Under the pieces are notes generated by a model. That model was not told the DNA's origin. It did no database searches and saw only the letters and a program-made list of their open reading frames with translations. Both the position numbers and the translations under genes were made by a program. A stretch of DNA of 64,000 bases, from IMG/VR virus record IMGVR_UViG_3300025010_000008; one strand, written 5' to 3'. The first letter of the stretch is position 1, and every line of letters begins with the position of its first letter. The stretch is from a virus. This document shows positions 5,494 to 42,614 of the stretch, piece by piece.

Positions 5494-5494
5494 T

Positions 5495-5914: not shown

Positions 5915-5930
5915 TAGGGGGAATATCCAT

Positions 5931-8900
5931 ATGGCCAACCTCATAGATAATCCGTTACTTTTAATAAGCACGCCTGATATCCTTCAGGTCATGGACAGCG
6001 AAGGGAATTTCCCTTACGACCCTGCCGATCATTGTTACGCAGCCGGTGGTTGCGATGCCCTGGGCGGGAATGGTATTACTCCGGACAACTATTGGGCGTT
6101 GGGTGGTCCGGATTACGGCACCTTTTTAGCTGCTGGTGGCGTATGGGACGAAAAGCAAACCCCTGACGGTGGGAAAAGCATACTACTGGATATAGCTGAT
6201 CCACTGGTAGCCCAGTCAGGCGGCATAACGCAGGTTATCGCGATTAATCAAACAGAAGTAAAGCCAATCCGCATATCGGCCTATGTTGCTGCGGAAGGAT
6301 GTACTGGTAATCCTAAAGTTACTATTGGTTTTATTGGTCATCCTCCCGGTTGGCCTGCTGTTGGTGGTGGGGATCTGGTTTTTGACGCTGGTACCTACGA
6401 TTTTACATACAAGAAAAAGACTTTTATCCCGTCTAGGCCGGTAAAATACCTGTTCTTGCACCTACTACACAGAGGATTTTCAGCCGGGAAAGCCTGGTAT
6501 GGTAGCTTTACCCTAGAAGAATTAGCTGTAAATCCGGTAGAGTTACCAACAGATAATTGCATCGTAAACCCAAACTTTTTCTATTCAGGGGATGATATAA
6601 CCCCTACGGGTTGGGATATTACGGACGCGATAATGATCGAAGAAATTAACCCGCTTGGTACAATATCAATGCTACTACAGCGAAATAGTTCATTATTGCA
6701 GAAAAATATTTGTATTGACAACGGGCTCCTAAAACAAAAAATAACCGTTTATGCCATGAGTCAGGGAGTTGCTATTTTTAGGGTTAAAATAACCTTATTG
6801 GACAGGTACCGGCGCGCAATCGGGGAGAAAATTGTAAGCGTCCAGGCAACCAGTACATGGAGGGCTACCGATATTTACGTTCTGAGTACAGCGTTTTCCG
6901 AAAAGGCAGATATTGAAATCACAAATGTGGACGGCGATGCTGGGTATATCGGTGGCGTGCTGTTAGTATCTCAGGCATTTACACCGTCAAAAATTGTTGA
7001 TGTGTCGGCAACCACCAATACAGTGACAATACCGGCAGCCAGTGCTGACACAACTGCAGTTATCCCGGTTGGGGCAACGGCAAACCCGAATCACATTGAA
7101 TTTGACATCGGAACCACCAATAGCACCGTATACGTTACTGACGGGCTCATGGGTGACTTTGCCGCTGCTGCTGTGCATGAACCGTTTACTATGCTCAAAA
7201 AAGCGGCCATGACGCAACTGAGCGGCACGGAATACACACTCTACCCTTGGCCGACAGGCATTTCTGGTATTGAGATTGACGGTCAAGAGATAGATCAACT
7301 TCTGAGAATACCTCACGTTGTCCACCCGGATAACTGGCTAGTGACCGACGGAGGCAGCATCCCGGCAGGAGAGACGAGGTATTACTGCGTTACTGCGATA
7401 ACTGGTAGCGGGGAAACGGATCGTTCTAATGAAGTCCGGGCGATAACTGGTGCAGGAACCAACACCAATAGGGTGCCGATTGAGATTACACCGGTGGAAG
7501 GTGCTACAGCATACCGGATTTACATGACACAACACGAGGACACAGATCAGCCTTGGGAATACAGCGTAGCAGGTGTAAAAAAGCTGGTGTGGAATGATGA
7601 GCAGAATCATCTTGTCGCTGAAGTTACGGCTGCACAACTACAGACTGCCGGGTACGTTGTCTATGATACAGGCGCAGCCTTGTCTGCCGGATACCCGCCG
7701 ATTACTAACACTGCCGAACGCTGGACTGTAGACGATGTAAACGAAAAGATTGTTTTTGATGCGGCAAGTACACCAACAGGGACGGTCCAGGCGGTTTACT
7801 CTGTCACTGAAAACCAAAACTCAATAATTTACCTGCCTCACGCTGACAAGTTTTATATTGCCGGTGATGCCGGAATCTATGAATCAGGCGTATTTACGCC
7901 TGGGCAGGCAACACTTACCACTGAGGTCTTAGACGTTGTGGCTTTGTCTTATTTCGGGGAATTGTGGTACATGACAGCCGCAGGAGATGTGAAAAACTTA
8001 ACCGGGACCACGTACCCTGGTGACGTTGGCTTTGTCGCTTTTTGTTTTGTAGATGCCGCACATATCGCCCGGATAACTGCCGCCGGAGCAGTAAAAATAT
8101 TTGATCTGGCCGGAGTTATTACGAGTCAATTTACGTTGACCGGCATAACTGACTGTCAGGGACTAGCATCGTATTTCGATAAGTTGGTTACTTACGACAA
8201 CCAACAGAATAAATTTATCGTCTTTGACCAGCAAGGAAATATTCTACAGTCAATCGACACACCGATTATTGGTGCTACGGCCTGGAACATATCTGGCATT
8301 AACCTGGTAGTCTTGACCAGTTTTACCGTGGCAGTTTTCAGGATACATGCCCAAAACTATTTTAGCAAGCTGGACAAAGAATATTACTTGGGTAACAATC
8401 CCCAGCAACCGTCAATAACGCGGATAAAACTACCGGGTGAAGTGACGGAGCCCACACCACCGGAACTGTTGCCGAATGGCACATTTGAGGACGGGACAAC
8501 CTTTCCGGCAGGATTTAGTATTTACGGGCCGAGTGAAATAGCTACATCATTTTCAACTGAAATAGCCATTCCAGGTACGAAAGCCTTAACGTTTACGTTT
8601 CCAAGTGCTTCTTGGAAAAGCATAAATAAGTACGGTATCCCTGTTATTGGTGGTAGGCAATATAGCTTTTCCATACATGTCAAGGCTACTGCAAACTCCA
8701 ACGGGCTACTTGGTATTCAGTTCGTAGATAAGGACGGAAGCGGTGACGAGACATTTCTCACTGTACCTTATACGACTGAATATACGATATACCAGGCTAT
8801 ATACCAGGCGCCTATTGATGCAGTAACTGTTGAATTTCGCTATCTTTGTTACGGCAGTGATGCTCAGGGTATTACCTATTTTTTGAATGCCTTGAGTCTC

Positions 8901-11426
8901 AAGGAAGAAGAGTCACCGGAAGTAACCTTTGAGCACCTCTATAATGGGCAGTTTTTGGTTGCTCCGACTGGTGCAACAATGCCTTCCGGTTGGTCTATTG
9001 CAGGGGATGGTTCAGATGATGCTATTACAGCCATAGAGACACCAATCATGCAGGCACAAGGGAAAGCCCTTAGAATAGACTTACCGACGTTTGAAATAGC
9101 CGGATGGACGGCATTACAGTCTCAGACTTTTGCTGTCGAGGAAGGCGACAATCTGGAAGTTAGTTTTTACTATCGTAAGGGTGAGAATGAATCGTATGGT
9201 TTGCAAGTATCTCTTTACTATGTTGATGATGGTCCTTCAGTACACAGGACAGTAACAATACCTGCTCCTGCTTCGGCTTCTCCGGTAGTTGTTTTGTTCC
9301 CACCAAACCCGGCGGGATATACTGAAGCGTACTTACGAATATGGCCGGGATTTGACGATTCAAATTGGATTGAAAATTGTAGCGTCAAACCTGTTGTAAG
9401 TCTTAGTGGTGTGGTAAATCCTGCTTTTTCAGCAGAATTGGCAGGTTGGAATCGTTGGGGAACAGATATGCAGGGTGAAAGTATAAACGGATTAGGATCA
9501 AGCCTAGAAAGCAACCTTTTCCATTCAAGCCCGTATTGCTGCAAACTATATGTCGATAGGATAGCATGTAGATACGCGGAGGTAAGACAGACCATCACAT
9601 TAAACCAAGCAATACCAAAGAAAGTAAGTTTTAGTGCTTGGGGTGCAGGGGAAAGCATCATTGGTGGCGGCCTATTTTTCTTCGAGGTATGGGTGAAATA
9701 TATGGATGATACCAGCGAGTGGAACCCTTGCGGCGACAGTCAGAAGTGGCCTGGTGGTACATTCGGTTGGACGAAAATAGAATTCGAGTTTACCCCTCTG
9801 AAAGCGATTAAGGAAATTGATATTATCATCGACCTTGGCTGGGGTGGAACCGGTATAGCTTGGTTTGATGATGTTTCTGTTATCGAGGAGCAGGACATTC
9901 CCACGGTTGATGAAGTAGTTTTAACCGTGCCTTACACCGAACTAAACACTGAAACAGTTAAGCAGATAAAACTTACCGCGCAACTCAAAAATACCGGTAG
10001 TAATGTTGAGCAAAAAGGAATTGATGTTACATTCAGTGCTACCCCGGATATAGGTAGTTTTGAGGCCCTAGATACTAATTCTATCGGCAAGGCTAATGCG
10101 ATCTATACACTACCAGCCACGGCCAGCAAGGTTACAATCACTGCTACTTACGGTGCAAACAATGCCTCTGAAGTTGTTACTATCTACCCCCTGGTTCTTA
10201 AAAGCAGGCAGGAACCGGAGATAGGAAGTTTACCACAAAATGTTGACAGTTTAAACGTAGAAATACTTGTCCCGCGAGACAAAAAACCACTGCCGGACGT
10301 AACAGAAAGAATTGGCCGGTGGGAGGTTTTCCGACCAACCGTATATAACGCAAAACAGATGCTTGATTACGACATGCACTATTCACCGATAACCGATTGG
10401 GCGAATGTTAAGGCTGATGTTATAGCGAAATTATATCCGAGACTGTTTTTGTTCCATTACTTTGATGACCTATCAGGTTATCCAAACGAAACCGACTGGC
10501 AAGAAATCATGGCACAGCGTAAGGAATGGTATTGTGTCGATGCTACAGGTCTTTCCTCCCCGTTCGGCGATGGCCGGTACTACTACAACTGGCGCAATAT
10601 GGAGGCGGTTCAGTGGTATGTTAATAGGCTGATTCGGAACCACGCTACTTGGTCTGATGGCATCTATGTGGACGACTTCTGGGGTGAGAGCTATGGGACA
10701 CTTGTAGACTTTGAGTGGGGCGCAGAGGCAAGTCAACTGCTTAATTTCAGGACGGTCAGGGAGAGATTAGAGTCTAGCGCAAACAGGTTAAATCTACTCA
10801 GGGATGAATTGCACAGACGGGGAAAATACCTCACTACTAATTTCGGTCCAGCAAGAGAATTTGTTGACGGAACGCTTGCAGAGGATACAGAACTGTTGGC
10901 AATGCCGTTCGACGGGTATCTTCTGGAGTGCTGGCTGTACACCTGGACAATCAACCCGGAGGATATAACTGATAGCGGATTCGACCAAGCGTACGTGAAA
11001 AGTGAGATAGATTTCGTCAAATGGTGCGGTGACAACGGAAAATGGGTAGTTTGTTTAGCCCGGAGCAGTAGCGAACTTTGGCCAGCAAGGATGTTTAGCT
11101 TGGCTGCTTTTCTGATGGGTAAACATGCACACGCTTTTTACTGTCATTCCGACTGGGGGCCTAATACTTACGGAAGCAACTGGCATGAGCAGATGCAACC
11201 TGAATGTTTTATTGTTACAGGGCAACCGTTGGAGTCTTACCAACTAAATAATGGTCTATTCTCCCGCCGTTTTGAAAATTGTGTTGCTTTGCTAAATATG
11301 AATGACTTAGCTCAGGATTATGCGCTGCCTGCTGGGACTTGGTACACAATGCGGGGGGATAGCTATAGCGGGACCATATCGGTAGTCAGACGGCAGGGGT
11401 TGGTATTAGTCAAAGAAAGACCGTAG
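5931..11426 (+). CDS. Giant tail fibre/receptor-binding protein with CBM-like repeats and a C-terminal glycosidase-like domain
   Basis: 1831 aa. It has repeated N-G-x-F-E / G-W segments (about 8460-9900) that resemble carbohydrate-binding jelly-rolls and an FN3-like stretch (about 7370-7560). The C-terminal ~500 aa is rich in W/Y/D, as in polysaccharide hydrolases. Confidence 0.6.
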   Translation: MANLIDNPLLLISTPDILQVMDSEGNFPYDPADHCYAAGGCDALGGNGITPDNYWALGGPDYGTFLAAGGVWDEKQTPDGGKSILLDIADPLVAQSGGITQVIAINQTEVKPIRISAYVAAEGCTGNPKVTIGFIGHPPGWPAVGGGDLVFDAGTYDFTYKKKTFIPSRPVKYLFLHLLHRGFSAGKAWYGSFTLEELAVNPVELPTDNCIVNPNFFYSGDDITPTGWDITDAIMIEEINPLGTISMLLQRNSSLLQKNICIDNGLLKQKITVYAMSQGVAIFRVKITLLDRYRRAIGEKIVSVQATSTWRATDIYVLSTAFSEKADIEITNVDGDAGYIGGVLLVSQAFTPSKIVDVSATTNTVTIPAASADTTAVIPVGATANPNHIEFDIGTTNSTVYVTDGLMGDFAAAAVHEPFTMLKKAAMTQLSGTEYTLYPWPTGISGIEIDGQEIDQLLRIPHVVHPDNWLVTDGGSIPAGETRYYCVTAITGSGETDRSNEVRAITGAGTNTNRVPIEITPVEGATAYRIYMTQHEDTDQPWEYSVAGVKKLVWNDEQNHLVAEVTAAQLQTAGYVVYDTGAALSAGYPPITNTAERWTVDDVNEKIVFDAASTPTGTVQAVYSVTENQNSIIYLPHADKFYIAGDAGIYESGVFTPGQATLTTEVLDVVALSYFGELWYMTAAGDVKNLTGTTYPGDVGFVAFCFVDAAHIARITAAGAVKIFDLAGVITSQFTLTGITDCQGLASYFDKLVTYDNQQNKFIVFDQQGNILQSIDTPIIGATAWNISGINLVVLTSFTVAVFRIHAQNYFSKLDKEYYLGNNPQQPSITRIKLPGEVTEPTPPELLPNGTFEDGTTFPAGFSIYGPSEIATSFSTEIAIPGTKALTFTFPSASWKSINKYGIPVIGGRQYSFSIHVKATANSNGLLGIQFVDKDGSGDETFLTVPYTTEYTIYQAIYQAPIDAVTVEFRYLCYGSDAQGITYFLNALSLKEEESPEVTFEHLYNGQFLVAPTGATMPSGWSIAGDGSDDAITAIETPIMQAQGKALRIDLPTFEIAGWTALQSQTFAVEEGDNLEVSFYYRKGENESYGLQVSLYYVDDGPSVHRTVTIPAPASASPVVVLFPPNPAGYTEAYLRIWPGFDDSNWIENCSVKPVVSLSGVVNPAFSAELAGWNRWGTDMQGESINGLGSSLESNLFHSSPYCCKLYVDRIACRYAEVRQTITLNQAIPKKVSFSAWGAGESIIGGGLFFFEVWVKYMDDTSEWNPCGDSQKWPGGTFGWTKIEFEFTPLKAIKEIDIIIDLGWGGTGIAWFDDVSVIEEQDIPTVDEVVLTVPYTELNTETVKQIKLTAQLKNTGSNVEQKGIDVTFSATPDIGSFEALDTNSIGKANAIYTLPATASKVTITATYGANNASEVVTIYPLVLKSRQEPEIGSLPQNVDSLNVEILVPRDKKPLPDVTERIGRWEVFRPTVYNAKQMLDYDMHYSPITDWANVKADVIAKLYPRLFLFHYFDDLSGYPNETDWQEIMAQRKEWYCVDATGLSSPFGDGRYYYNWRNMEAVQWYVNRLIRNHATWSDGIYVDDFWGESYGTLVDFEWGAEASQLLNFRTVRERLESSANRLNLLRDELHRRGKYLTTNFGPAREFVDGTLAEDTELLAMPFDGYLLECWLYTWTINPEDITDSGFDQAYVKSEIDFVKWCGDNGKWVVCLARSSSELWPARMFSLAAFLMGKHAHAFYCHSDWGPNTYGSNWHEQMQPECFIVTGQPLESYQLNNGLFSRRFENCVALLNMNDLAQDYALPAGTWYTMRGDSYSGTISVVRRQGLVLVKERP

Positions 11427-11435
11427 GAGGTATTT

Positions 11436-14048
11436 ATGGCGAGTTTAATTTTATCAGAAGCAAGCGGACAGACGATCTATAAGGTCTACGTGCAGCCAGG
11501 CAAGGAATATCTGCTGTACGGAAAAGTTATTACCGTCGGTGCATCGAAATATTCAATCAGAGAGGTTAGTGTTACCGGGCAGGTTATTAGTAATACAGAG
11601 ATAATTATATCCGACACGGACGGCTTGCATGAATTCAGCAGGGTTTTTGACAGCTCAAATGCGACTATTATGTTGATTATCGCACTGACCAACACAGAAG
11701 TCCTTGAACTGTCTCTGGACGGTCCGCAGGGGATCGTATATGTGACCAATCCTATATCGAATATATTAAAGCACATCAGCCAGTTTGATGTGCTTATTTC
11801 GTACCTTGATAGAGTTTTTGAGGTTAAGATATCGAAAAAACTAAACGGGGATAACCGCCTCACCTTCAACCTGCCTTTGGATGACGAAAAAGGGCAGGAG
11901 ATTATCAATGAAAATTTCATCGAGTGTAAAGGTCAAAAATACATCGTCAAAATAGCTAAGGATTCTATTACAAATGACGGTCAGAAAATAAAGATAATTG
12001 AAGCAGAGCATGTCGGCCTTGGCCTACTTGATTATTGGCTGCCTGATACATTAGACATGCCTTCTGTTTCTCCTGTGGTAGCTCTGGAGGCTATTCTGGC
12101 AGATACCCCTTATACCGTAGGAACGGTCAATGTAACAGGCGTAAACGACCTTGAAATTGAGATTATCAACAAGCTTAAGGCAGTTAAAACCGTCCAAGAG
12201 CTTTGGGGCGGTGAACTGTATTTTGACAACTACACGGTCAACCTGGTGCAACAGATGGGTCAAGATAACGGCGTACAGTTTCGCAAAGGCAAAAACCTAG
12301 ACAAGATAATCAGAACACTTGACACAAACAGTTTGACAACTAAAATGTTCGGGTACGGCAAAGACAACCTGATTATCACTGGCCTGGACACTACGGGGTG
12401 GACAGAGGAACAAAAAGCTGGTTTGGTCATCGGTGAGGATAACAAAATAGCACAGCCATACCTAACCAGCCAATATATCGGAAATTATGCCCGCGAACAT
12501 CAAGGGGAGTTTAGGAACTCAGATATTGACGATCAGCAAAAACTCCTTGATGCTATGCGAAAAGCCATAACAGAGCAGGAGATACCGAGAGTTACCTATG
12601 AGACAGACGTTATTAACCTATCAGGTTTAGCGCAGTACATCGGTGAGGGATTCGACATAGGTGATACGGTTAAGGTATTTGATGAACTCATAAACGCTGA
12701 TGTGAAAGCTAGGGTTGTCGAATACGAGGAATACCCAAAAGAACCTTGGCGGGATAAAGCTGTGTTAGATAATTTTACCCAAAACCTGCACGACTATCTA
12801 ACGAGTTTAAGTGATATGAAAGAAGCTTATGACAAGGCGTTTACTGGCGGCAAAGTCTCAACTGCCTGGTTAGAAGGTATAATAAATGTCCTTAAAAACG
12901 AACTTATCTCTGAGACTGCACACGTCTATATAACTGATACAGATGGTATTCTGGTTACAAACGGTGATGAAACAAAAGCTTTGTCACTTAAAGGTGGTAT
13001 TTTCGGCATAGCTAATAGTAAAACCGGCGGCAATTGGGACTGGCGTACCTTCGGTACCGGTGATGGGTTTACTGCTGACTGTATGGTATCGGGTAAAATA
13101 CTCACTTCTCTCGTGGAAATAGTTGGGGAAGTCGTAGACGGCGCGAATAAATTCTATTGGGATGCTACGGGGTTGTATGCAGTCGATCCAGCCAACGCGA
13201 ACCGTTATATGAAGTTCAGTAAGGAAGGGCTCCGAGGTTATGTTGATGGTGTTTTGAGGATGCACCTGGGGCCGTATGCGAGTAATAAGTTTGGATTAAA
13301 ATTAGTTGCTCCGGACGGAGTAACAACCATTCTGGATGAAGATGGGATTTTGCAGACCTGGCAGGAAGGCCGGGCCGATAATGTTGATGCTAGTCACCCG
13401 CTGGTGCTGTCGGTTTATTTGCCGGAGGAAACGAAATCTGTTTATAAAGCTATTTTGCGGTTTAAGCTACAGGGGTTTAGATCATACTCTAAATCGGCGG
13501 CATCAGGCGGTGGAAGTACGTCTGGGTCTAGTAGTGCGACTACTACTGCGAGCGGTGGTAACACTACACCAACTAGCCAGACTTCTGATCTCTGGGACTT
13601 AGATAGTATGTATGTACCAAATGCAGTATCTGACAGGGACGATCATAATCACGGCATACCAAACAGTACTACACTGCTGGTAAGTGGTGGTGATACTGTT
13701 GACTTCGTGGAATCCGGTGGGCATACTCATGCTCTTACAGCAGACCATCGGCATGATGTGACTATTCCAAGCCATACGCACGGGATGAGTCATACGCACA
13801 GTACTCCTAATCACGAACACAATATAACCTATGGGATTTATACCGACACCTCCGCTACAGGAGCAACCGTAATAATTAACGGAGTTGATCGGACGTCGGT
13901 ACTTGGGGGTCCGTTTAGTAGCGACCAAGCTAATTTAAGCATAGCAGCGTATTTGTCAGCCGGCCAATGGAACACTATTCAGTTAGGTAGTAGCCAATTA
14001 GGGCGAATTGACGCAACTGTATTTTTGCAAGCGAAAATGGGAATTTAG
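11436..14048 (+). CDS. Tail-associated lysin-like / phage minor structural protein (Tal-like) with His-box tip
   Basis: 870 aa. The N-terminal region (KLNGDNRLTFNLPLDDEKG...KGQKYIVK) resembles the prophage tail endopeptidase family. The C-terminus carries HxH repeats. Confidence 0.7.
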   Translation: MASLILSEASGQTIYKVYVQPGKEYLLYGKVITVGASKYSIREVSVTGQVISNTEIIISDTDGLHEFSRVFDSSNATIMLIIALTNTEVLELSLDGPQGIVYVTNPISNILKHISQFDVLISYLDRVFEVKISKKLNGDNRLTFNLPLDDEKGQEIINENFIECKGQKYIVKIAKDSITNDGQKIKIIEAEHVGLGLLDYWLPDTLDMPSVSPVVALEAILADTPYTVGTVNVTGVNDLEIEIINKLKAVKTVQELWGGELYFDNYTVNLVQQMGQDNGVQFRKGKNLDKIIRTLDTNSLTTKMFGYGKDNLIITGLDTTGWTEEQKAGLVIGEDNKIAQPYLTSQYIGNYAREHQGEFRNSDIDDQQKLLDAMRKAITEQEIPRVTYETDVINLSGLAQYIGEGFDIGDTVKVFDELINADVKARVVEYEEYPKEPWRDKAVLDNFTQNLHDYLTSLSDMKEAYDKAFTGGKVSTAWLEGIINVLKNELISETAHVYITDTDGILVTNGDETKALSLKGGIFGIANSKTGGNWDWRTFGTGDGFTADCMVSGKILTSLVEIVGEVVDGANKFYWDATGLYAVDPANANRYMKFSKEGLRGYVDGVLRMHLGPYASNKFGLKLVAPDGVTTILDEDGILQTWQEGRADNVDASHPLVLSVYLPEETKSVYKAILRFKLQGFRSYSKSAASGGGSTSGSSSATTTASGGNTTPTSQTSDLWDLDSMYVPNAVSDRDDHNHGIPNSTTLLVSGGDTVDFVESGGHTHALTADHRHDVTIPSHTHGMSHTHSTPNHEHNITYGIYTDTSATGATVIINGVDRTSVLGGPFSSDQANLSIAAYLSAGQWNTIQLGSSQLGRIDATVFLQAKMGI

Positions 14049-25698: not shown

Positions 25699-27384
25699 AT
25701 GTTCGGCCACGAGTCAAAGCCGTGCAAAGTCTACGAATACGGCTGTTTACCTCCGACCGAGGGGGAAGAAGCGTTCTTGGAAGAAATTCGGAGGCGACAT
25801 AACCTTTGGAATAGACTGGTTGAAATAGAGCACGACCACCGGGCTAAGGTGCGCGAAGTTTTGGTTGTGCCCGACGATCCAATGCCGGCAATGTACGACC
25901 GACTAAAAGAGCTACGCCAACAAATCAAAGAGGAGCGAAAGCAAAAACGCTCTGGTAAGGTGGACGTGTCAGAATTGCAGCAACAGGTTAAGGAGCTTCA
26001 GGCCGCAATAAAAGAGGAGAAAATGGGACATGCTGCGACCAAGAAAGAAATAGCAGCGACCAACAAACCGCTTCTGCAGGAACTAGACGAGGAGCGCAAA
26101 GCACTCGTTAAAGAGGCTGCCAAAGCAAGTGGTTTGTACTGGTGTAACTACGAGGAAGTGGTTATGGGCTACGACACAGCGCGCAAAAAGGCTATGCGCG
26201 ATAAAACAGAGCTAAAGTTTCACCGCTGGGAAGGCGTTGGTAAAGTGACCGTCCGTTTTCAAAAAGGCTTGCCTGTGCCAGCATTATTTACCAGCGACAA
26301 ACGTTTGCAAGTTGACCCAGTTGAGTCGGATGCCTGGGAACACCCCACACGTTCAGTACGCCGTAAGGCATCACGTACAGCAATCAGATTACGCGTAACC
26401 TCAGATGAGGCTAAGAAACCCGTTTGGATAGAACTGCCGATGGTCATGCACAGGCCGTTACCACCGGAATCGGAAATCCGCAGTGCGTCAATCGTTCGGG
26501 AACGTGTAGGCCGTAAATATCGCTATAAAGCAATTATTACTGCCACAACACCGGATGTACTAAAGGCGCACGGACGCGGAGTAATGGCAATTGACCTGGG
26601 CTGGCGTAAAGTCAAGGATGGTTTACGTGTGGCATTTTGGGCCGATGATAACGACAACAGTGGTTCTTTGGTGTTGCCACATGGCGTATTGTACGAATTT
26701 AATAAGCTGGACGATCTTAAGTCTATTCGCGACACCCACCACAACGAGGCCAAAACGGAATTGGTCGAATGGCTGGCGGGTAACGCTATGCCTGAGTGGA
26801 TGGCCGAGGATACCGCGACCTTATCGCAATGGCGCTCACCAGCGCGCATGGTCAGCCTGGTGAGGAAGTGGAGCGACAACCGCTTTGAAGGTGACGCTGA
26901 TATTTTTAATGTCATGTGGGCATGGAGGGGCCGAGAACTCCATCTCTATGACTGGGAAACTAATCTGCGTGACCAGGTCATCAAACGTAGACAGCATATT
27001 TACCGCAACTTTGCGGCTCGTGCTATTGAACGATGCGATACTATCGTGGTCGAAGACATGGACCTCAGAGGGTTAGCACGTAAGGCATCACCAGAAAGCG
27101 GAACATCCGGCTCACTACCGACCGATCGTCAAAGAGTAATGGCGTCCGTCAGCGAGCTACGACTGGCCCTGGAGAACGCATGTAGACAGGCTGGTGTCGA
27201 TTATATCAAGGAAAAATCAGCGTTCAGCACGCTAGAATGCTGTGAATGTGGTTTTACCGAGCGATACGATGCCGCTGTTCAGATCTGGCATACATGTCCC
27301 AAGTGCCATGCATTATGGGATCAGGATGAAAATGCAGCACGTAACCTGCTGAAGCGACATTCTCTCAAAACTACGGGCAATTGA
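25699..27384 (+). CDS. TnpB/Cas12-like RNA-guided RuvC endonuclease candidate (561 aa)
   Basis: RuvC-I AIDLGWRKV, RuvC-II IVVEDMDLRGL, zinc ribbon CCECG...CPKCH and RuvC-III DQDENAARNLL. The N-terminus KVYEYGCLPPTEGEEAFLEEIRRRHNLWN resembles the TnpB/OrfB WED start. A ~100-aa coiled-coil is inserted. Confidence 0.8.
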   Translation: MFGHESKPCKVYEYGCLPPTEGEEAFLEEIRRRHNLWNRLVEIEHDHRAKVREVLVVPDDPMPAMYDRLKELRQQIKEERKQKRSGKVDVSELQQQVKELQAAIKEEKMGHAATKKEIAATNKPLLQELDEERKALVKEAAKASGLYWCNYEEVVMGYDTARKKAMRDKTELKFHRWEGVGKVTVRFQKGLPVPALFTSDKRLQVDPVESDAWEHPTRSVRRKASRTAIRLRVTSDEAKKPVWIELPMVMHRPLPPESEIRSASIVRERVGRKYRYKAIITATTPDVLKAHGRGVMAIDLGWRKVKDGLRVAFWADDNDNSGSLVLPHGVLYEFNKLDDLKSIRDTHHNEAKTELVEWLAGNAMPEWMAEDTATLSQWRSPARMVSLVRKWSDNRFEGDADIFNVMWAWRGRELHLYDWETNLRDQVIKRRQHIYRNFAARAIERCDTIVVEDMDLRGLARKASPESGTSGSLPTDRQRVMASVSELRLALENACRQAGVDYIKEKSAFSTLECCECGFTERYDAAVQIWHTCPKCHALWDQDENAARNLLKRHSLKTTGN

Positions 27385-27424
27385 TACAGGAAATAGATTT
27401 GCGAATTTTGACGTTTCAACAGAG

Positions 27425-27453
27425 TTGTTGGAGGCGCGATATTGCTGTATAAT
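27425..27453 (+). promoter_or_regulatory. Candidate promoter for the repeat array
   Basis: TTGTTG (27425-30), 17 bp, TATAAT (27448-53). It ends 14 nt upstream of repeat 1. Confidence 0.4.
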
Positions 27454-27466
27454 AAAGTCGGTTGCA

Positions 27467-27870
27467 GTACCGAGTTCACCGGGTTGAATAGTGAAACCCA
27501 TAATGATGACAAAGTTACAATACCGAGTCCAGCGGTTTTAATGTTGGAACATCCTATAATGTTCATATGATGGAACTTTGTAGCTATAATAATGCCGAGT
27601 CCAGCGGCTTAAGCTTTAGAACCGGGACTATGGAGATGTTCGACCAAAGCATTGGAACTGTGGGATAGGTCTTATAATGCCGAGTCCAGCGGCCTTAACT
27701 CTGGAACTATACTCATTAACTTGATCTAATGCCGGGTTTGGCGGCTTGAGAATACCAAAACTTGTACATTAAAATCTTCCGTGTATTTTCGCAAATCATT
27801 ATGAGGGCGCATAATTCGCGCCTTTCGCGCTCGATTGCAATGGCTAGTTCACGGCCTTGAATGGTGAAAC
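27467..27870 (+). CRISPR. Atypical CRISPR-like mini-array of divergent hairpin repeats
   Basis: Six ~31-nt units at 27467-97, 27520-50, 27592-622, 27677-707, 27729-61 and 27842-70. They share a CCGAGTYCAxCGG core and end in GGAAC/GAAAC. Intervals are irregular (22, 41, 54, 21 and 80 nt). Confidence 0.45.
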
Positions 27871-27921
27871 AAGCACTTCCAACCGTTGTCCTGAATTGAT
27901 TTTTATACATAACAACAGTCT

Positions 27922-27947
27922 ACCGCCTTTATAGGCGGTTTTTATTA
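27922..27947 (+). terminator. Rho-independent terminator after the repeat array
   Basis: ACCGCCT ttat AGGCGGT followed by TTTTATT. Confidence 0.75.
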
Positions 27948-27982
27948 TTTAAAAAGATATTTCAGAAATTACTAAAGCAGTA

Positions 27983-28012
27983 TTGAAACATAGTGACGTG
28001 TTGTGATATACT
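27983..28012 (+). promoter_or_regulatory. Promoter with a shared operator-like spacer (copy 1)
   Basis: TTGAAA, 18 bp, TGaTATACT. The spacer TAGTGACGTGTTGTGA is nearly identical to the one at 29672-29689. Confidence 0.55.
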
Positions 28013-28066
28013 CTTATTACTCCCGACTAAAGGCATTTTACGCAAAAGGAGGCTCAAAAACATGCC

Positions 28067-29512
28067 ATGACACAGATCAATATTTTACCGTATTTAATTG
28101 AGGCGTTCGGGCACAATCGAAGGATTTACCCGGACATTGATCGCCTGTATGAAACTAGGAAATATGAGTTCTACCAATTGGCCACATCCTCTGAGTGGTA
28201 TAACCACCAGATTGTCGCGGAGGGTGATATTTACCATGAGGAATACGCCAAGAAAGCACTTGGGATTATCCTGTATATCGTCGAAACTCAAGATAGGGAA
28301 ATACAGGATAAATTTTACGATATTATCCGCAAGGGCTGGACGCGAGCCTATATGTACGTTCGAAATCATGATGTTGTTAGTTTTGAGAAGTATTTTTCCA
28401 ATATGAGCCATATTAAAAATGACGATGACGCAAATACCGAGAGTGCGGTATTGTATTTTCTAGCTCAAAATGCCGGAAAGACTATCGAACACAACGAACA
28501 CCTGAAGCTCTGGGAAGACGTTACGATTATGCGACTTGAACACTATAAGCTCGATCACCCGCTGAGGTATAACTATGAAACTATTGAGCCGGACGTTCTG
28601 AAACATATTAAGTCCCTCAAGGATCGTGTTTATGGCAAATACGGTGTATTAAATAGCTATGATGCCTTATTCGATACGCGGATGCACGAGGACATGAGAA
28701 ACAACCGGGATCAGTTGTCGCTACTTTGTGACACTGAGTTTGTGAGTATTTCCAGTCTATTCAACAACGTCAAAATTACCGAACGTGACGTTGAAGAAGT
28801 ATTAGGATTATATTTTATGCACCACAAAAATAAGAACGCTGAGGCGGCGGGCAACTTTTTGGTAGCTGGTTTAATGTTGAAGGGTCTGCTGAAAGCCTAT
28901 AGGCAGGTCAAGGAGCACTTTTTTGCCAATAACCGCGAGACAATGCTGCTTGAAATGCGTCGCCAGGATGATAAAATTGAGCAACTCACCGGGGATAACG
29001 TTGTCTTAAAACGAAAGGCTGAATCTCTGGAAAGCCAGGTTAAGTCTATCCGTGACGAGGTCGAGGAACAGTATACTACCCAGGTACGCGGGTTAGAGGC
29101 GCGGGTAAGGGAATTAGAGATAGAACTGGCCCGTGAAAAACAGAAAGACGGGGAACTTAACGCTCTCCGGGAGTTTATTTTTTCGCTAAATACCGAGGCA
29201 GAGCCGGGCGTAGCTGAAAAAGAGTTTGACTTTACCGGTGTGCGTGGAGTCATCTTTGGTGGGCATGAACGTTGGCGAAAGCGAATGAAAGAACTGCTGC
29301 CGGGGTTTGTTTTTATTTCGTCGGAAAGTTTTGATGTGCGGCTTTTGGACGATGCAGACGTTGTACTGTTTTTCGTCGGGTATATGGGCCATAAGCTGTA
29401 CGACAAGGCCATCGCGGAGGCAAGAAAACACGGACTTAAGGTCGGCTATATCAGTAGTATTAATGACCGGCTAGCCTTAGGTGAAATTGAAAAGATATTG
29501 AGGAGGAAGTAG
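28067..29512 (+). CDS. Hypothetical 481-aa protein with coiled-coil and a DUF2325-like C-terminal domain
   Basis: The C-terminus GVIFGGHERWRKRMKELLPGFVFISSE...VLFFVGYMGHKLYDKA resembles DUF2325. The central coiled-coil lies at about 28950-29150. Confidence 0.55.
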   Translation: MTQINILPYLIEAFGHNRRIYPDIDRLYETRKYEFYQLATSSEWYNHQIVAEGDIYHEEYAKKALGIILYIVETQDREIQDKFYDIIRKGWTRAYMYVRNHDVVSFEKYFSNMSHIKNDDDANTESAVLYFLAQNAGKTIEHNEHLKLWEDVTIMRLEHYKLDHPLRYNYETIEPDVLKHIKSLKDRVYGKYGVLNSYDALFDTRMHEDMRNNRDQLSLLCDTEFVSISSLFNNVKITERDVEEVLGLYFMHHKNKNAEAAGNFLVAGLMLKGLLKAYRQVKEHFFANNRETMLLEMRRQDDKIEQLTGDNVVLKRKAESLESQVKSIRDEVEEQYTTQVRGLEARVRELEIELAREKQKDGELNALREFIFSLNTEAEPGVAEKEFDFTGVRGVIFGGHERWRKRMKELLPGFVFISSESFDVRLLDDADVVLFFVGYMGHKLYDKAIAEARKHGLKVGYISSINDRLALGEIEKILRRK

Positions 29513-29513
29513 T

Positions 29514-29669
29514 ATGAGCGAAAAAACAACCGCTGTCAAAGATAAGTTTATCCAATTTAAAATTGACGGCGAGACAAAGGAGAAGTTTCTGAAGTACTGC
29601 GAGGAGAACAGTATCAATGCCTCTGAGCTTCTCAGAAAATATATTCAGGAAATCGTGAAAAAGTGTTGA
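29514..29669 (+). CDS. Ribbon-helix-helix (CopG-like) small DNA-binding protein candidate
   Basis: 51 aa, absent from the ORF track because it is under 60 aa. It starts 2 nt after the upstream stop. KFIQFKIDGETKEKFLKYCEENSINASELLRKYI reads as strand-helix-helix. Confidence 0.5.
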   Translation: MSEKTTAVKDKFIQFKIDGETKEKFLKYCEENSINASELLRKYIQEIVKKC

Positions 29670-29695
29670 CGCGTAGTGACGCGTTATGATATACT
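29666..29695 (+). promoter_or_regulatory. Promoter with a shared operator-like spacer (copy 2)
   Basis: TTGACG, 18 bp, TGaTATACT. Spacer TAGTGACGCGTTATGA. Confidence 0.55.
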
Positions 29696-29861
29696 TATCT
29701 CAGTAGAAAAACGGCCACTGAGCCGAAGGGAGATAGAAATATATCTGGAAGCATAGTCGAAACGCCTTCGGGCGTCTGCCGGATTGGCTACCGGCACTGA
29801 TGAGACAGCCGAAAAGAATAACAAAAACCCCACAGCGCGAACCGGCGAAGGAGGAAGGAAA

Positions 29862-30167
29862 ATGATACTCTATCACGCAACACGTCAACCGGCCTACGAA
29901 AACGCCAAGAAAATAGAAAGAGAAGGTTTTCGCGGAAATGACGTTTGGGATCTGAAAGATGTTGTTTTCCTTTCCGACAAACCTCTTACAGGTTTTGGCG
30001 GTTGGATGGATTGTTGGGTTGCCGTAGAAGTTCCCGAAGAAAAATTAGGACTAGGAAACTACGAGGACCAAGAATCAGACAACGACCAGTACGAGTGCAA
30101 TAGTTACGCTTTCAAGGCTGAAACTATTAACCAGTTTGACAGGTGGGTTGTTGATATTATTGACTAG
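29862..30167 (+). CDS. Hypothetical protein
   Basis: 101 aa, RBS gaaggaggaagg, begins MILYHATRQP. Confidence 0.55.
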   Translation: MILYHATRQPAYENAKKIEREGFRGNDVWDLKDVVFLSDKPLTGFGGWMDCWVAVEVPEEKLGLGNYEDQESDNDQYECNSYAFKAETINQFDRWVVDIID

Positions 30168-30324
30168 AAAATTCCTATACTACTTATCTGCATCACTTGT
30201 TTGTGGGTACCTACTAGAATTCGTCATTTTTCAGTACGACGGAAACTACGCAGGATGTTACAATAGTCCTGTTCAACCTCTATCTAATGTGGTTAAACAG
30301 AGACTACGACGAGGAGGAAAAATA

Positions 30325-30621
30325 ATGCAACTAGAGTCTGAATCAGGAAGAATCGTTGCTACGTACGGGAGTACGTACACCAACAAACAGGCGTATCTGG
30401 ATGCGCGGAACTACCTACTGTCTCAAGAGCACCGTAGGGATAAGCTTGAGACAAAACTCGAAGATGAGTATATCATCGACGAGAAAAGACGGTTGCAGAG
30501 AGCAATAGAAAACATCGATACAAGATGTTTTCTAAAAGATAACTTTGATCGCACTATAGAAAAATACACTATCGACAGATGGGGTACGGTACACAAAAAC
30601 CCCGATTGGGATTTAGATTAA
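30325..30621 (+). CDS. Hypothetical protein
   Basis: 98 aa, RBS gaggagga. Confidence 0.55.
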   Translation: MQLESESGRIVATYGSTYTNKQAYLDARNYLLSQEHRRDKLETKLEDEYIIDEKRRLQRAIENIDTRCFLKDNFDRTIEKYTIDRWGTVHKNPDWDLD

Positions 30622-30685
30622 TATTCTAGGCTTGGGGTTAGCCGAAAAAGCCCCGCCAGGAAAATTAAGGAGGGAGGGCGATAAA

Positions 30686-31030
30686 ATGTTACTAAACTTT
30701 TCCAACAAGGAAATCTACGCCGCCATGGTGGAGCACAGTATCCCGACAGTCACCCGCAAAAGTATTGCTGGGATGTTGAAATCGTTCGGGCATGGTCGTG
30801 AGGAGGCTTGCAACTACCTGGAGAAACAAGGTATTGTGCGTATCAACTGGGATCATCACTGCAAATGCGGTGCCTGTGACCCAGAACCGGCAGTTAGTAT
30901 TAAGCTGCCGGGCGAGAAGGGCCAATACTGGATGTCAGTCGGCAGGGAATATTTCAACGCACTGCCGACAGATGAGCAGGAGAAAATCACTGCTCATATT
31001 AAAAAATTTGGAGGTGAGATAGTTGACTAA
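30686..31030 (+). CDS. Hypothetical protein (winged-helix-like N-terminus, HHCKCGAC motif)
   Basis: 114 aa, RBS aaggagggaggg. Confidence 0.55.
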   Translation: MLLNFSNKEIYAAMVEHSIPTVTRKSIAGMLKSFGHGREEACNYLEKQGIVRINWDHHCKCGACDPEPAVSIKLPGEKGQYWMSVGREYFNALPTDEQEKITAHIKKFGGEIVD

Positions 31031-31460
31031 AACACAATACAAACTCACTTGCGGATACCTACCGCACGAAGAGCAGTGTGACCGTAGAGGGAACTGCGAA
31101 GGTTGCGAGTTTGCTGAACCAGTTAAAGAAACTCACCCGTGCGGTGGAACGTCGGTCCCGAACTGTGATTGCTGCTCATTGGATGGGCAGAATCATGGAG
31201 GTGAGGACTGTCCGTACACTGAAACTGCCCCACTGATATGCAGATACGGCCTAGAAAATTGTCACTGCGCCGTTGGTCAGTGTCAGCACTACAAGGAAGG
31301 CACGTTCTGCCAAAAACCGTTTTCCGCTTGCGATACCTGCGGACGCGACTGCAAAAGTAAGCAACTCCCCGGCGATCCTGACTGCTGGGTACGTGGTTGC
31401 AACTGCGGGAGCGGCGAACCGGCTCAAATATGCACGGCAGGTTCAGAATGGTGTGGATAG
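31023..31460 (+). CDS. Cysteine-rich protein (about 22 Cys in 145 aa)
   Basis: TTG start after ggaggtgag. Many CxxC, CxC and CC motifs. Confidence 0.55.
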   Translation: MTKTQYKLTCGYLPHEEQCDRRGNCEGCEFAEPVKETHPCGGTSVPNCDCCSLDGQNHGGEDCPYTETAPLICRYGLENCHCAVGQCQHYKEGTFCQKPFSACDTCGRDCKSKQLPGDPDCWVRGCNCGSGEPAQICTAGSEWCG

Positions 31461-31473
31461 AGGGAGTGAATAT

Positions 31474-31578
31474 ATGTTTTATGTAGGCGTAACACTTTTA
31501 ACCCTTACGGCGATGTATGCGGCATGCTGGATTGCCGCTTATGTAATAACAGATGCTATCTTTACGAATAAGAAATAG
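31474..31578 (+). CDS. Small single-TM protein
   Basis: 34 aa, MFYVGVTLLTLTAMYAACWIAAYVI, RBS agagggag. Confidence 0.4.
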   Translation: MFYVGVTLLTLTAMYAACWIAAYVITDAIFTNKK

Positions 31579-31594
31579 AGGAGGAGGAATTTAA

Positions 31595-32182
31595 ATGAAT
31601 TTAGTAAGACGTTGTGATTATAAATTAGCCTCTGAGTGTCCAAATGAATGCATCGAAAACGGCGTTCTTTGCAAACATGCAAAAGTTATCTCGTGCGAAG
31701 TTGTTCGCTGCACAGATGAGGAAAAACTTGCTTGTGGCAATTCCGGTAATCCAGATCTTCTTTATTTTTGTAAGGGCAGGGGCTTTGAATCACTGCCGCC
31801 AATTGAGACACCAATTTTCACCTCGGCAAAAATTATTAGCCAGGAAAACATAGCAGGACTATCTCACCACTCCGGCGAGTATGACCTGTATATGGAAAGG
31901 TTTCATGTCGAATTCTCATTACGGAAAGAATCAGCCAGCGGGTGCAATATTGGCGGTGGGGTTAATGACCTCATAGTGTTCGTTCGTGAGGATGACCACG
32001 AACGCCTTGACTGGGGACAGAAACCGCCGCGCACAGTTGTTGCATGTAGTATCCTTTACCATAGTCGCTCGGAGAGTTACCAATTTGATTTATTCAGAAA
32101 CGGAGAGTACGTCCAAAACGAACTCTTCACGGAAAACGAGGTAGAGAAAATATCTGAGATTATTGAAAGTATTCGCGATTAG
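31595..32182 (+). CDS. Hypothetical protein with a Cys-rich N-terminus
   Basis: 195 aa, RBS gaggaggagg. Confidence 0.6.
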   Translation: MNLVRRCDYKLASECPNECIENGVLCKHAKVISCEVVRCTDEEKLACGNSGNPDLLYFCKGRGFESLPPIETPIFTSAKIISQENIAGLSHHSGEYDLYMERFHVEFSLRKESASGCNIGGGVNDLIVFVREDDHERLDWGQKPPRTVVACSILYHSRSESYQFDLFRNGEYVQNELFTENEVEKISEIIESIRD

Positions 32183-38604: not shown

Positions 38605-40077
38605 TTAACTACGGTAAGCAATTGTAATATCGTCCACACTAACTACTTCTATGTGGTCAATGATAGTCTGCAGCAGTGCCTTAGCTTTAACCGGATCCGT
38701 CTCCTCTAACAAAGCTGCAGCTATCTTTTGGCGCTGCCCTGTCCTGGCCGCTATTTCTTCTGGAGTAACCTGACCTTCAATTTGCGCCTTAAGCCGGTCG
38801 ATGTCTTTTCCTAAACTCTCTCTTTGTTCCGCAATAGATGCCTTCCGCTCTGAAAAGAAGTCAAGATCATAATCTCCCCGCTCATAGGCCTCTGCAGCTC
38901 TCAATGTCATCAGCTTTAGTTTGTCCATTTCCTTATGCTTAAAAGCCAGCTCCTCTTTAAGCAAGCCAATATTGGACGGTATTTCTTCCCTGCCAACAAC
39001 GGAAACTCCCTGGGTGGCCAACTCCTGAATATCGTTTAGCACCAGTGCTTCTAGTTCATTAGCCTTGATATACAACTGATTACAAGTACCCAGGCCGCGA
39101 GTAGAGTAATTATTACATACATAGTACCTGTACTCCCAAAAGCCTTCTTTAGCCTTCTTCTTGCGTGCATAACGGCCAATCATGGTCGCACTCTTACATA
39201 TACCGCAGCGAAGCAAGCCAGAAAGTAGGTAAAAGGAGTTCTGAGCCCGACCACTAATGTCACCTTTCCTTATACGCCTCTCCTGCACCTTTTTCCAAGT
39301 CTCAGGATCAATGATAGGCGGGTGGTTGTTTTCTACCCGTATAACGTCCCAGGTGAACGTACCGGTATACACTTCGTTCTTTATTATCTCCTTAACAGAT
39401 ACGTGGGCCCAGGTGTTTCCGCGTAGGCTTTTTAAACCCATGCTGTTTAAATGTTCAGCTATAGCCCGTAAGCCTAAATTTTGTTCCAGGTACATGGAAA
39501 ATATCATCCTGACCATGCGGGCTTCTTCTTCGTTTATCACAAATCCATTAGGTCCTATATCGTACCCAAGGGGACGGCGACACATATGCTTTCCCTGCTT
39601 TGCCCGCTCAATCATTCCTCCAATAACTTTACTAGCAAGCTGCTTGCGAAAATATTCACTAAATGCAGACAGAATATGCATTTGTAACTGACCTTGTGCG
39701 GTTGTTGTATCAAACCCGTCATGGATAGAAATAAAAGCTACTCCCAGTTTGTCCAGTTCATCAACAAAAAGCAGTGTATCCAGCATTGAACGGGCAAGTC
39801 GGTCTAGTTCGTGAACTATAACAACAGAAATACCATAGTCAGTGATGAATTTTATTACGGATGCTCGCTCCTTGGATGTGCCAGAAAGCACCTTAGCTCC
39901 GCTCTGTACAAACTCAAAGAAATGTACCAGGTCAAGGCCCCTGGCTTTGCACTCCTGGGCTATATGGGTTCGCTGGTGAGGAATGGAGTATCTGTCTTCC
40001 GTGGCCTGTTCTGCTGTTGACACTCTGACTATGGCAATAGCCCGGTTGTTGATTATTTTGTTATTCTGCTTTTTCAT
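38605..40077 (-). CDS. Large serine recombinase (phage integrase type)
   Basis: The N-terminal resolvase domain AIAIVRVSTAEQ carries the catalytic Ser. The recombinase domain and zinc ribbon (CGICKS...YYVCNNY...C) are followed by a C-terminal coiled-coil. 490 aa. Confidence 0.9.
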   Translation of the reverse strand: MKKQNNKIINNRAIAIVRVSTAEQATEDRYSIPHQRTHIAQECKARGLDLVHFFEFVQSGAKVLSGTSKERASVIKFITDYGISVVIVHELDRLARSMLDTLLFVDELDKLGVAFISIHDGFDTTTAQGQLQMHILSAFSEYFRKQLASKVIGGMIERAKQGKHMCRRPLGYDIGPNGFVINEEEARMVRMIFSMYLEQNLGLRAIAEHLNSMGLKSLRGNTWAHVSVKEIIKNEVYTGTFTWDVIRVENNHPPIIDPETWKKVQERRIRKGDISGRAQNSFYLLSGLLRCGICKSATMIGRYARKKKAKEGFWEYRYYVCNNYSTRGLGTCNQLYIKANELEALVLNDIQELATQGVSVVGREEIPSNIGLLKEELAFKHKEMDKLKLMTLRAAEAYERGDYDLDFFSERKASIAEQRESLGKDIDRLKAQIEGQVTPEEIAARTGQRQKIAAALLEETDPVKAKALLQTIIDHIEVVSVDDITIAYRS

Positions 40078-41636: not shown

Positions 41637-42614
41637 TCACCCGTTACGGGTGTCTATCTTTCTTTGGCGTATTTCTTTCGTAGTCGCTACCTCGCTTAAG
41701 CCCATTTTATCTAGCAACTCAAGAACCATGGTTTTTGCCCCGCAATATTCACAATATAGTGCATCGGGGACATTTGCTTTACCACAATACTCATGGTTAT
41801 ATCTTGGATCGGTTTCAAGGTTGACACAGAGATTGTATAGGTATTGTCCACATTTTTTACAAAACTTTGCTGTAGATGAAAATGAGTTGTTACCACAAAC
41901 TGGACAATCAATAAATCTCATATTTTCATCGACTTCCGGTAATCTTATGTCTTTTAATTTATTTGCGCTCGATCTAACCACCTTCTCTTTAATCGAGGTA
42001 CAATAGTTAATGCCGCTTTTATAATTAATCCTTGTTTCAGCGATATATAATTTGCCGGATCTGTTTACTTTCCACTCATTAAAAAGCTGCCTAGCGTTTT
42101 CCTTTGAAAGTATTTGCAATTCATCTAGCCTATTAACAATTGCCTCCCAGGATACATTAAAAATTCTCTTAAGTCTCCCAATCTCAGGAACAGTCAGAGG
42201 TAAGCAAATACGTGAGCGCACCCACTGCTTAGGCATTAAGCACCGGGTAGCAAATATATCTGCCTCCCGGTCCAGCATCCACAATTCCCTACTAGTCAAA
42301 TACTCAATATCGAATTCAAAATGATGGTTTAGTGTAATATGTGCTAGTTCATGTGCGTAGGTAAAGTTATCCCTGCCGTTGGGTAGGTCTTTGTTTATGT
42401 AAATGTGGTATATATCATCTACCGGATAGGAAAATCCTTTTTCTTTTGAAAATTTATTATTCTGATTGTTGCTAAAATAAAACAATCTGCCCAACTGCTT
42501 AAGTATTTCTTTAACTGGAACGGGTGGAGCTTGTACGCCCATTTGTTTTAACAGTGTCCTTACCTTCGCTTTTACATAATTCTCTCTTACATTAGTAGGA
42601 CGACTTATAAACAC
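41637..42614 (-). CDS. ImmA/IrrE-family metallopeptidase with C-terminal double zinc ribbon
   Basis: HEXXH in YAHELAHITLNHH. C-terminal CPVCG...CKKCG and CGKAN...CEYCG. It lies adjacent to the XRE repressor. Confidence 0.75.
   Translation of the reverse strand: MFISRPTNVRENYVKAKVRTLLKQMGVQAPPVPVKEILKQLGRLFYFSNNQNNKFSKEKGFSYPVDDIYHIYINKDLPNGRDNFTYAHELAHITLNHHFEFDIEYLTSRELWMLDREADIFATRCLMPKQWVRSRICLPLTVPEIGRLKRIFNVSWEAIVNRLDELQILSKENARQLFNEWKVNRSGKLYIAETRINYKSGINYCTSIKEKVVRSSANKLKDIRLPEVDENMRFIDCPVCGNNSFSSTAKFCKKCGQYLYNLCVNLETDPRYNHEYCGKANVPDALYCEYCGAKTMVLELLDKMGLSEVATTKEIRQRKIDTRNG

Follow-up and report, generated by a model that had tools for sequence, protein, structure and literature searches.

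The 64,000-nucleotide (nt) viral record IMGVR_UViG_3300025010_000008, a temperate phage sequence, was found to harbor an atypical CRISPR array directly after a gene for Cas12m, the effector of type V-M CRISPR-Cas systems. The whole 64-kb stretch is hereafter called the window, and all coordinates are positions in it. Comparison with related loci established the identity of the effector, the family-wide occurrence of such arrays after its gene, the boundaries of the repeat units and the conservation of both stems of their RNA fold. Judging from the aligned repeats, each 37-nt unit is best described as a predicted Cas12m CRISPR RNA (crRNA) scaffold, of which the 5' 8 nt would be dispensable while the other 29 nt form a pseudoknot; the repeats are far diverged in sequence, yet appear to keep the RNA fold that Cas12m recognizes. 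The feature is thus real and belongs to type V-M CRISPR-Cas, a system already known, here with an unusual and possibly undescribed array state, as the literature searched, with incomplete coverage, held no description of mosaic, structure-preserving V-M arrays. With moderate confidence, we read it as an array from which four to six crRNAs are still made for Cas12m-guided DNA binding, which would serve the prophage in excluding rivals or controlling genes.

The Cas12m effector and its repeat units

The cas12m gene (25699-27384, plus strand) encodes a type V-M effector of 561 amino acids (aa) with the RuvC residues D299, E452 and D541 and a CCCC zinc ribbon. By employing the single sequence as query, the PDB entry 23vw_A, "DNA-binding protein Cas12m", was matched with an E-value of 2.7e-164 and Cas12m2 with 4e-48; a profile of 26 homologues improved these values to 5e-216 and 6e-82, respectively. 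PADLOC assigned the protein to Cas12u1, the old name of V-M (5.5e-141), and Pfam identified a Cas12f1-like TNB domain. The reading frame is intact and all conserved motifs are present. The original prediction, made by a model from the letters and their reading frames, had called the product a nuclease, which needs correction, since the gene belongs to Cas12m, a family for which experiments show DNA binding rather than cutting. TnpB with a guide RNA was considered and rejected: the NCBIfam model guided_TnpB scored 73 bits against a cutoff of 100 and covered only the C-terminal part, while the best full-length match was Cas12m, and the multi-unit array after the gene also rules this reading out. 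In some homologues, the first two RuvC positions are occupied by N, D or G, in keeping with the triads DED, NED and DND published for V-M clades 3 and 4 (PMC10442227). The aligned residues of the closest solved protein, 23vw, are likewise D, E and D, and its entry bears the name of a DNA-binding protein.

Six related 37-nt units were found within 27461-27870 on the plus strand, R1 starting 76 nt after the end of cas12m, with no copies elsewhere in the window and no other CRISPR-like array there. The original prediction had delimited them as units of ~31 nt separated by intervals of 22, 41, 54, 21 and 80 nt. The six positions and, for those boundaries, the intervals were correct, and the units are real; their length was not, as the true repeat, defined by the repeats of related loci, is 37 nt and reaches further on the 5' side. 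With the 5' extension (given as 8 nt), the 31-nt units correspond exactly to the family's 36-37 nt repeat. The periods between units are irregular (53, 72, 85, 52 and 111 nt), and the spacers within the 37-nt boundaries measure 16, 35, 48, 15 and 72 nt, followed by a last stretch of ~36 nt running to the terminator. Mean column identity of the six repeats is 74%, and their mean pairwise identity of 0.68 falls in the lowest class of the family. The window array is consequently not one of near-identical, regularly spaced repeats with spacers of similar length; the view that this is no textbook CRISPR array but a guide array beside its effector holds.

The first unit, R1 (27461-27497, GTTGCAGTACCGAGTTCACCGGGTTGAATAGTGAAAC), has the stem A strands CCG/CGG and the stem B strands TTCAC/GTGAA, and scored 33.2 bits with the covariance model described below. 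It is followed by a 16-nt spacer (27498-27513, CCATAATGATGACAAA) and by R2 (27514-27550), whose stem B, TCCAG/TTGGA, includes one G-U pair (31.0 bits). R3 (27586-27622; 14.1 bits) carries ATAATAAT as its 5' tail, and its stem B is interrupted by one C-A mismatch, whereas R4 (27671-27707; 33.0 bits) has the stem B strands TCCAG/CTGGA. The 17 nt ATGCCGAGTCCAGCGGC are shared exactly by R3 and R4, as had been noticed. Spacer 4 (27708-27722, TATACTCATTAACTT) has 15 nt and separates R4 from R5 (27723-27761), a unit of 39 nt with 2 extra nt in its linker and a fully compensated stem B, TTTGG/CCAAA (11.3 bits). R6 (27834-27870) combines a compensated stem A, GGCT/GGCC, with the stem B strands TTCAC/GTGAA (32.2 bits); it is the unit closest to R1, and the identity at 22 of 29 positions given in the original prediction was confirmed by counting. 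The last spacer (27871-27906, ~36 nt, AAGCACTTCCAACCGTTGTCCTGAATTGATTTTTAT) has no terminal repeat after it. Two further stretches, described earlier as GGAAC-ending remnants with ends at 27576 and 27658, proved to be relic repeats. One of these (27552-27576) has lost 13 nt internally, while its 5' tail, CCTATAATG, and its 3' end, ATGGAAC, remain, as seen from its alignment to R2-R4 and from direct repeats. The other (27626-27658) abuts R3, is strongly degenerate and matches R4 at 17 of 33 positions. The two relics imply that deletions and duplications have reshaped the array. A 64-aa open reading frame (ORF) on the minus strand (27716-27910), called as a gene in public contigs, overlaps R5, the interval after it and R6, and is probably a spurious call.

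The confinement of the units to this region was supported by several searches. A repeat search of the window recovered a 24-nt core in five copies and linked R1, R2 and R6 over 40 nt. The 17-nt R3/R4 core, with up to 3 mismatches allowed, gave three matches, all in the array region, against 0.10 expected, a number reached in none of 100 shuffles; a degenerate 29-nt pattern gave five matches in the window, again all in the array region, against 0.05 expected. A structure-only scanner produced 1.2 false hits per kb and was replaced by a covariance model together with consensus matching. The model was trained on 27 family repeats plus R1 and R4, with R2 and R6 outside the training set, and recovered exactly the six units in 64 kb: R1, R4, R6 and R2 scored 31-33 bits, while the weaker R3 and R5 stood above a next best score in the window of 10.1 bits. 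Dispersed copies of a repetitive extragenic palindromic (REP)-like element, named beforehand as a reading that would undo the prediction, are excluded, as all matches fall within 27461-27870 and the units of related loci also lie directly after cas12m. Nor is the array an assembly artefact, because it is identical in contigs from five samples (ENA, Logan, JGI).

The array is framed by a leader and a terminator. In the leader (27385-27460, plus strand), the motif ATTTGCGAA (27397-27405) precedes a promoter-like site with TTGTTG at 27425-27430, 17 nt and TATAAT at 27448-27453. This site is in the sequence as predicted, but its -35 element matches TTGACA at only 3 of 6 positions, and because of this weak element it was omitted by the promoter scan. 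In five loci, those of the window and of its relatives L100, L101, L102 and L104, ATTTGCGAA directly follows the stop codon of cas12m, although their proteins are only 56-61% identical; it may serve as a site for a regulator or belong to a promoter. An inverted repeat search located the same motif, reverse-complemented as TTCGCAAATC (27788-27797), in the 72-nt interval before R6 (27762-27833, plus strand), which further holds a G+C hairpin, the trinucleotide TCG directly before R6 and, by the promoter scan, a promoter-like TTCGCA, 16 nt, CATAAT (27788-27815). From these elements and a comparison with the leaders of related loci, the interval looks like a second leader. The intrinsic terminator (27922-27947, plus strand), with a 7-bp stem at 27922-27939 and then a T run, is as originally described.

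Separate transcription of individual units had been proposed from the TATAAT boxes of the window; such boxes are located within the tails of R3 and R4 or immediately ahead of them, and likewise at several units of L101. They would not give an intact crRNA of the box's own unit, since a start at the usual spacing of ~7 nt would fall inside the scaffold. The boxes lie within the dispensable 5' repeat tail, where a single change turns GTTACAAT into GTTATAAT.

A conserved pseudoknot in a family of phage arrays

Two folds had been put forward as alternatives, a pairing of the 3' end with the GTYCA core and a mini-hairpin of CCG with CGG. Both are in fact kept and cross each other: the 5' strand of stem B lies inside stem A (CCG/CGG) and pairs with the 5 nt before the terminal AC, giving a pseudoknot. 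In the six-unit alignment, 96.3% of the 54 pair cells hold standard pairs and two are unpaired. Double-sided changes occur in seven of the nine pairs and are carried by 12 cells. The observed pairing was reached in none of 500 shuffles, and sliding the 3' partner left at most 57% paired. The z-score from folding the whole region, only -1.97, was uninformative. Three stem B versions coexist in the window, i.e. TTCAC/GTGAA in R1 and R6, TCCAG with CTGGA or TTGGA in R2-R4, and TTTGG/CCAAA in R5; the compensatory changes reported for the 3' pairing were real. The covariation check that had been suggested for homologous loci gave the same answer: in a set of 29 distinct family repeats, stem B shows 100% pairing and covariation at each of its five pairs. 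All six units share G14, A36 and C37, variation is highest in the 5' tail, and only 2 nt follow stem B.

This arrangement closely resembles the solved crRNA of Cas12m2, a 36-nt pseudoknot scaffold in which positions -22 to -17 pair with -8 to -3 (PMC10442227). In the same structure, G(-23) pairs with A(-2), the 5' end is disordered from -36 to -30, and guide and target form a 17-bp heteroduplex (PMC10442227). The window units share with it the pseudoknot, the dispensable 5' end, the G.A pair and the C next to the guide.

A protein search returned 172 relatives whose identity, leaving aside the phage itself, did not exceed 61%. Scans for related loci yielded 18 from genomes and 76 from IMG/VR viral contigs (about 90, mostly phage). 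In most loci, a repeat array with repeats of 36-37 nt begins ~10-150 nt from the cas12m stop codon. The consensus of ~40 related arrays is GTTGCAATGCCTGCTCAGnGGC...CTGAGAC; the window repeats end in GAAAC or GGAAC, as against the family's GAGAC. Most family arrays have a pairwise identity of at least 0.9. Of 415 periods measured in 40 distinct arrays, 248 belong to the dominant class of 72-75 nt, while short periods of 44-67 nt make up 20% and occur at least twice in 11 of the 40 arrays. These form a broad tail with no sharp peak at mature crRNA length, so compaction to that length is a suggestion only. Regular phage V-M arrays of this family (e.g. L021, L030, L033 and L049) share the repeat architecture and the position after the gene with the window, but differ from it in having 10-30 near-identical repeats (mean pairwise identity 0.92-0.99) with periods of 72-75 nt.

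Structure-preserving divergence was also seen elsewhere in the family. The array of L101, whose Cas12m is 60% identical to that of the window, has more than 12 units, one of them GAAAC-ended like the window's, with the stem A versions GCAT/ATGC, GTAT/ATAC and CCC/GGG and the stem B versions CTCAC/GTGAG, CTTAC/GTAAG, CTCAT/ATGAG and CTCAG/CTGAG. In the 106-kb viral contig L043, seven stem B versions are spread over 21 units, 102 of 105 stem B pairs are kept and blocks with a 61-nt period occur, and L035 has a similar heterogeneous array with compensated stems. The original description of the array as eroded or nascent is therefore half right: erosion agrees with the two relics, whereas a nascent state does not agree with a family whose members are mostly regular arrays. 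None of the relatives in the databases searched was close enough for array turnover to be seen. With 18000-32000 as query, Megablast gave no match among GenBank phages or PLSDB plasmids, and the five other contigs carry the identical array and thus no information on turnover. In L104, whose Cas12m is 57% identical to that of the window, an AcrVA2-like gene (PF26125; 12262-13284) lies directly after the V-M array.

Function of the array and competing explanations

From characterized orthologues, we infer the expression, processing, binding and silencing of the favored reading as follows. The leader promoter, together with read-through from cas12m, would drive transcription of the array. Cas12m would bind each scaffold and itself cut the precursor a few nt into the repeat and ~17-18 nt into the guide, and the resulting ~50-nt crRNAs would steer it to double-stranded DNA flanked by a protospacer adjacent motif (PAM), where its binding would block transcription or replication of a competing mobile element or of a host gene. 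Cas12m needs no trans-activating crRNA (tracrRNA) and has crRNAs of 50-60 nt (PMC11013384), and PmCas12m cleaves the repeat after nt 2-3 and the guide at nt 17-18 (bioRxiv 10.64898/2026.03.26.714355). Because of the latter cut, the 15-16 nt spacers are nearly full length, and with a published mature crRNA of ~51 nt the 52-53 nt units of the window would still carry nearly the full guide. R1, R2, R4 and R6 look fully competent, R3 and R5 marginal, while the two relics appear dead. As no adaptation genes were seen near the locus among the ORFs scanned, the guide set would be fixed and selection would act on the fold only, allowing repeats to diverge and units to shrink by deletion.

The guides themselves were searched for targets, as had been recommended for the inter-repeat segments. 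None of the six candidate guides had a 20-nt match with up to 4 mismatches in the window, where the best exact self-matches were 10-12 nt, i.e. at chance level, and the spacers matched the other fetched loci over at most 15 nt. Blastn of the whole array at E-values up to 10 against GenBank phages and PLSDB plasmids returned only chance-level matches in unrelated hosts, and exact 20-mers of four spacers were absent from IMG/VR. An 18-mer of spacer 1 gave three unrelated matches with different flanks, about as many as expected by chance. A JGI metagenome scan used the last spacer only, and its first 20 nt matched the Walker B region of a recN-like gene on an unrelated metagenome contig (L106, 1080-1099); this candidate was rejected, as the match did not extend on either side and ~1 such match is estimated to occur by chance.

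Among the relatives, by contrast, V-M spacers with matches in phage DNA were found. The first spacer of L037 matches the related phages L021, L023 and L026 (17308-17341; 14678-14711 in L023). Two spacers of L027 match, at 9112-9184, both strands of a 190-aa ORF ~1 kb upstream of its own cas12m, with no shared PAM; by eye, this ORF resembles a Uma2-type endonuclease.

Several observations weigh against a working array. No credible protospacer was found for any spacer across the window, GenBank phages, PLSDB and IMG/VR. R3 and R5 have low covariance scores, R3 with its stem mismatch; the intervals after R2 and R3 are mostly repeat-derived and not real spacers; and the two relic units mark the array as eroding by deletions. 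The RuvC triad D-E-D is kept, so a binding-only activity is extrapolated from other Cas12m proteins. Furthermore, the covariation could stem from units selected elsewhere and joined by recombination, in which case it would be silent on present function. These points lead to the somewhat unlikely alternative of the same V-M array being functionally dead, a case of terminal decay whose stems are the legacy of functional or imported repeats. Such a state would agree with the very short or repeat-derived spacers, the low repeat identity and the lack of adaptation genes, as well as with the relics and the missing targets. Neutral decay should, however, mostly break pairs, and despite ~30% divergence only the two stem cells mentioned are unpaired, against the 12 with double-sided changes. 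The intact cas12m frame with all its motifs, the identity of the array across five samples and the promoter-like site and terminator that still frame it also speak against death, as does the recurrence of the same pattern in three other elements with long arrays. We accordingly continue to favor an array still yielding crRNAs.

The heterogeneity might instead be adaptive in itself, the array being a non-repetitive multi-guide array whose fixed guides are shielded from recombinational loss, in a phage unable to gain spacers anew, and whose internal -10 boxes, arisen in the dispensable tails, boost downstream units. The recurrence of structure-preserving divergence in independent elements (the window, L101, L043 and L035) fits this idea, as does the concentration of divergence in the 5' tail, a part that the solved complex shows as disordered. 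Yet most family arrays, some with 20-30 units, are near-identical, so identical repeats are tolerated, and the relic units argue for passive erosion. The repeated short periods in 11 of the 40 family arrays can be cited in its favor, but they lack a sharp crRNA-length peak; the TATAAT boxes around the tails of R3, R4 and L101 units can be cited likewise, but are weak evidence because they need only one change. Taken together, we judge this explanation improbable. A broader version, also doubtful albeit less so, is that phage V-M systems repeatedly evolve hard-wired arrays, in which repeats may diverge and units may shrink towards mature crRNA length provided that the pseudoknot is kept, and recombination-proof fixed guides silence rivals or host genes.

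It is most improbable that the units serve another partner, either as substrates of a type IV complex and its Cas6 or as decoy RNAs directed at a V-M system of the host. It is true that cas6 and a cysH-like gene are found in a type IV operon 6 kb upstream, that the window has no other array and that type IV genes stand beside cas12m also in L045 and L046, but such genes are absent from nearly all other family loci. The GAAAC/GGAAC ends are unlike the family's, yet the repeats fit the V-M consensus in length, fold and position directly after cas12m. In a Cas6-processed type IV repeat, a hairpin is followed by ~8 nt that become the 5' handle of the crRNA. With only 2 nt after stem B, cleavage at the stem base would miss this handle, and the array is 6.4 kb from cas6; a type IV array processed by Cas6 was thus rejected. 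The Cas6-like protein, whose binding to single units the original prediction had proposed to test, belongs to this separate operon. Decoys are described for phages without a cognate effector (PMC11656645), whereas the window phage encodes one, so that RNA anti-CRISPRs or solitary units were rejected on account of the adjacent effector gene.

Phage context and relation to known systems

The temperate nature of the phage is indicated by tail genes (1062-14048), a Rha regulator (15560) and an amidase endolysin (16687) on one side, and a large serine recombinase (38605-40077) and an ImmA-like peptidase (41637-42614) on the lysogeny side. The cas12m module is situated between the lysis genes and the lysogeny genes, and the host is a probable member of Bacillota. 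In the module, cas12m is flanked by proteins of 287, 141 and 481 aa (24351-25696 and 28067-29512), of which the 481-aa protein weakly matches DUF2325. The nearest relative, L100, keeps the three beside cas12m at 40-61% identity, and they were found in none of the other fetched loci. No tRNAs were found. At Rfam gathering thresholds nothing was found in the array, while two self-cleaving ribozyme matches exceeded these thresholds elsewhere, i.e. HDV-F-prausnitzii (49.6 bits; 24196-24266, plus strand) and Hammerhead type II (47 bits; 29755-29814, plus strand). They lie in intergenic gaps and bracket the segment of the 287-aa and 141-aa genes, cas12m, the array and the 481-aa gene. Iteron-like 24-nt tandem repeats CAAGGGTTGCACGATTGTGCAA, in ~3 copies with a related 19-nt unit (56142-56255), are found inside the ORF 55836-56735 and may represent a replication origin within an initiator gene.

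The type IV operon (17368-21774, plus strand) comprises csf1, cas11, csf2/cas7, csf3/cas5, cas6 and a cysH-like PAPS-reductase homologue, and has no array of its own in the 64 kb. Its cysH-like gene points to subtype IV-B, which is usually without cas6. The 2025 classification shows subtype IV-B without arrays, and a plasmid is pictured with IV-B together with an inactivated V-B3 effector (PMC12669027).

Compared with described type V-M systems (formerly V-U1; MmCas12m2, GoCas12m and PmCas12m; PDB 8hhl, 8pm4 and 23vw), the effector is clearly homologous and the repeats have the same 36-37 nt length and lie downstream on the same strand, with no tracrRNA needed by V-M; these systems too occur on mobile elements, reportedly plasmids and some prophages. 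The window differs in its repeats, which are ~70% identical with three stem B sequences in one array and two relics, and in its spacers of 15, 16, 35, 48 and 72 nt rather than ~36. It also differs in the RuvC residues D-E-D in place of H-D-D (Cas12m2) or N-D-D (PmCas12m), and in its carrier, a temperate phage that also has a type IV operon. Like the window units, CreR/CreA mini-arrays, which control or protect cas genes, and the atypical repeats of transposon-associated CRISPR systems are degenerate and have short guides and no adaptation; they remain effector-bound, as would the window units. Their guides are directed at a promoter in the same locus or at a fixed attachment site, unlike those of the window, which lack any such self-match at 20 nt with up to 4 mismatches. 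RNA anti-CRISPRs are likewise phage-encoded repeat-like units, some preceded by -10 boxes, but mimic host repeats in effector-less phages, while the window has its cognate effector adjacent.

Standard CRISPR finders would miss a locus of this kind, as its repeats are too different and its spacing too irregular, whereas comparison of effector families together with counts of base-pair covariation assigns it to a known system. The binding-only CRISPR systems of mobile elements gain an example from a temperate phage that has a type IV operon alongside. Should the array be merely decaying, it would document array erosion without an adaptation module. If the units are functional, one Cas12m would accept at least three scaffold stem sequences, which would be useful for non-repetitive multiplex guide arrays in Cas12m repression or base editing, and if phages do repeatedly evolve hard-wired arrays, these would be the natural counterpart of engineered non-repetitive guide arrays.

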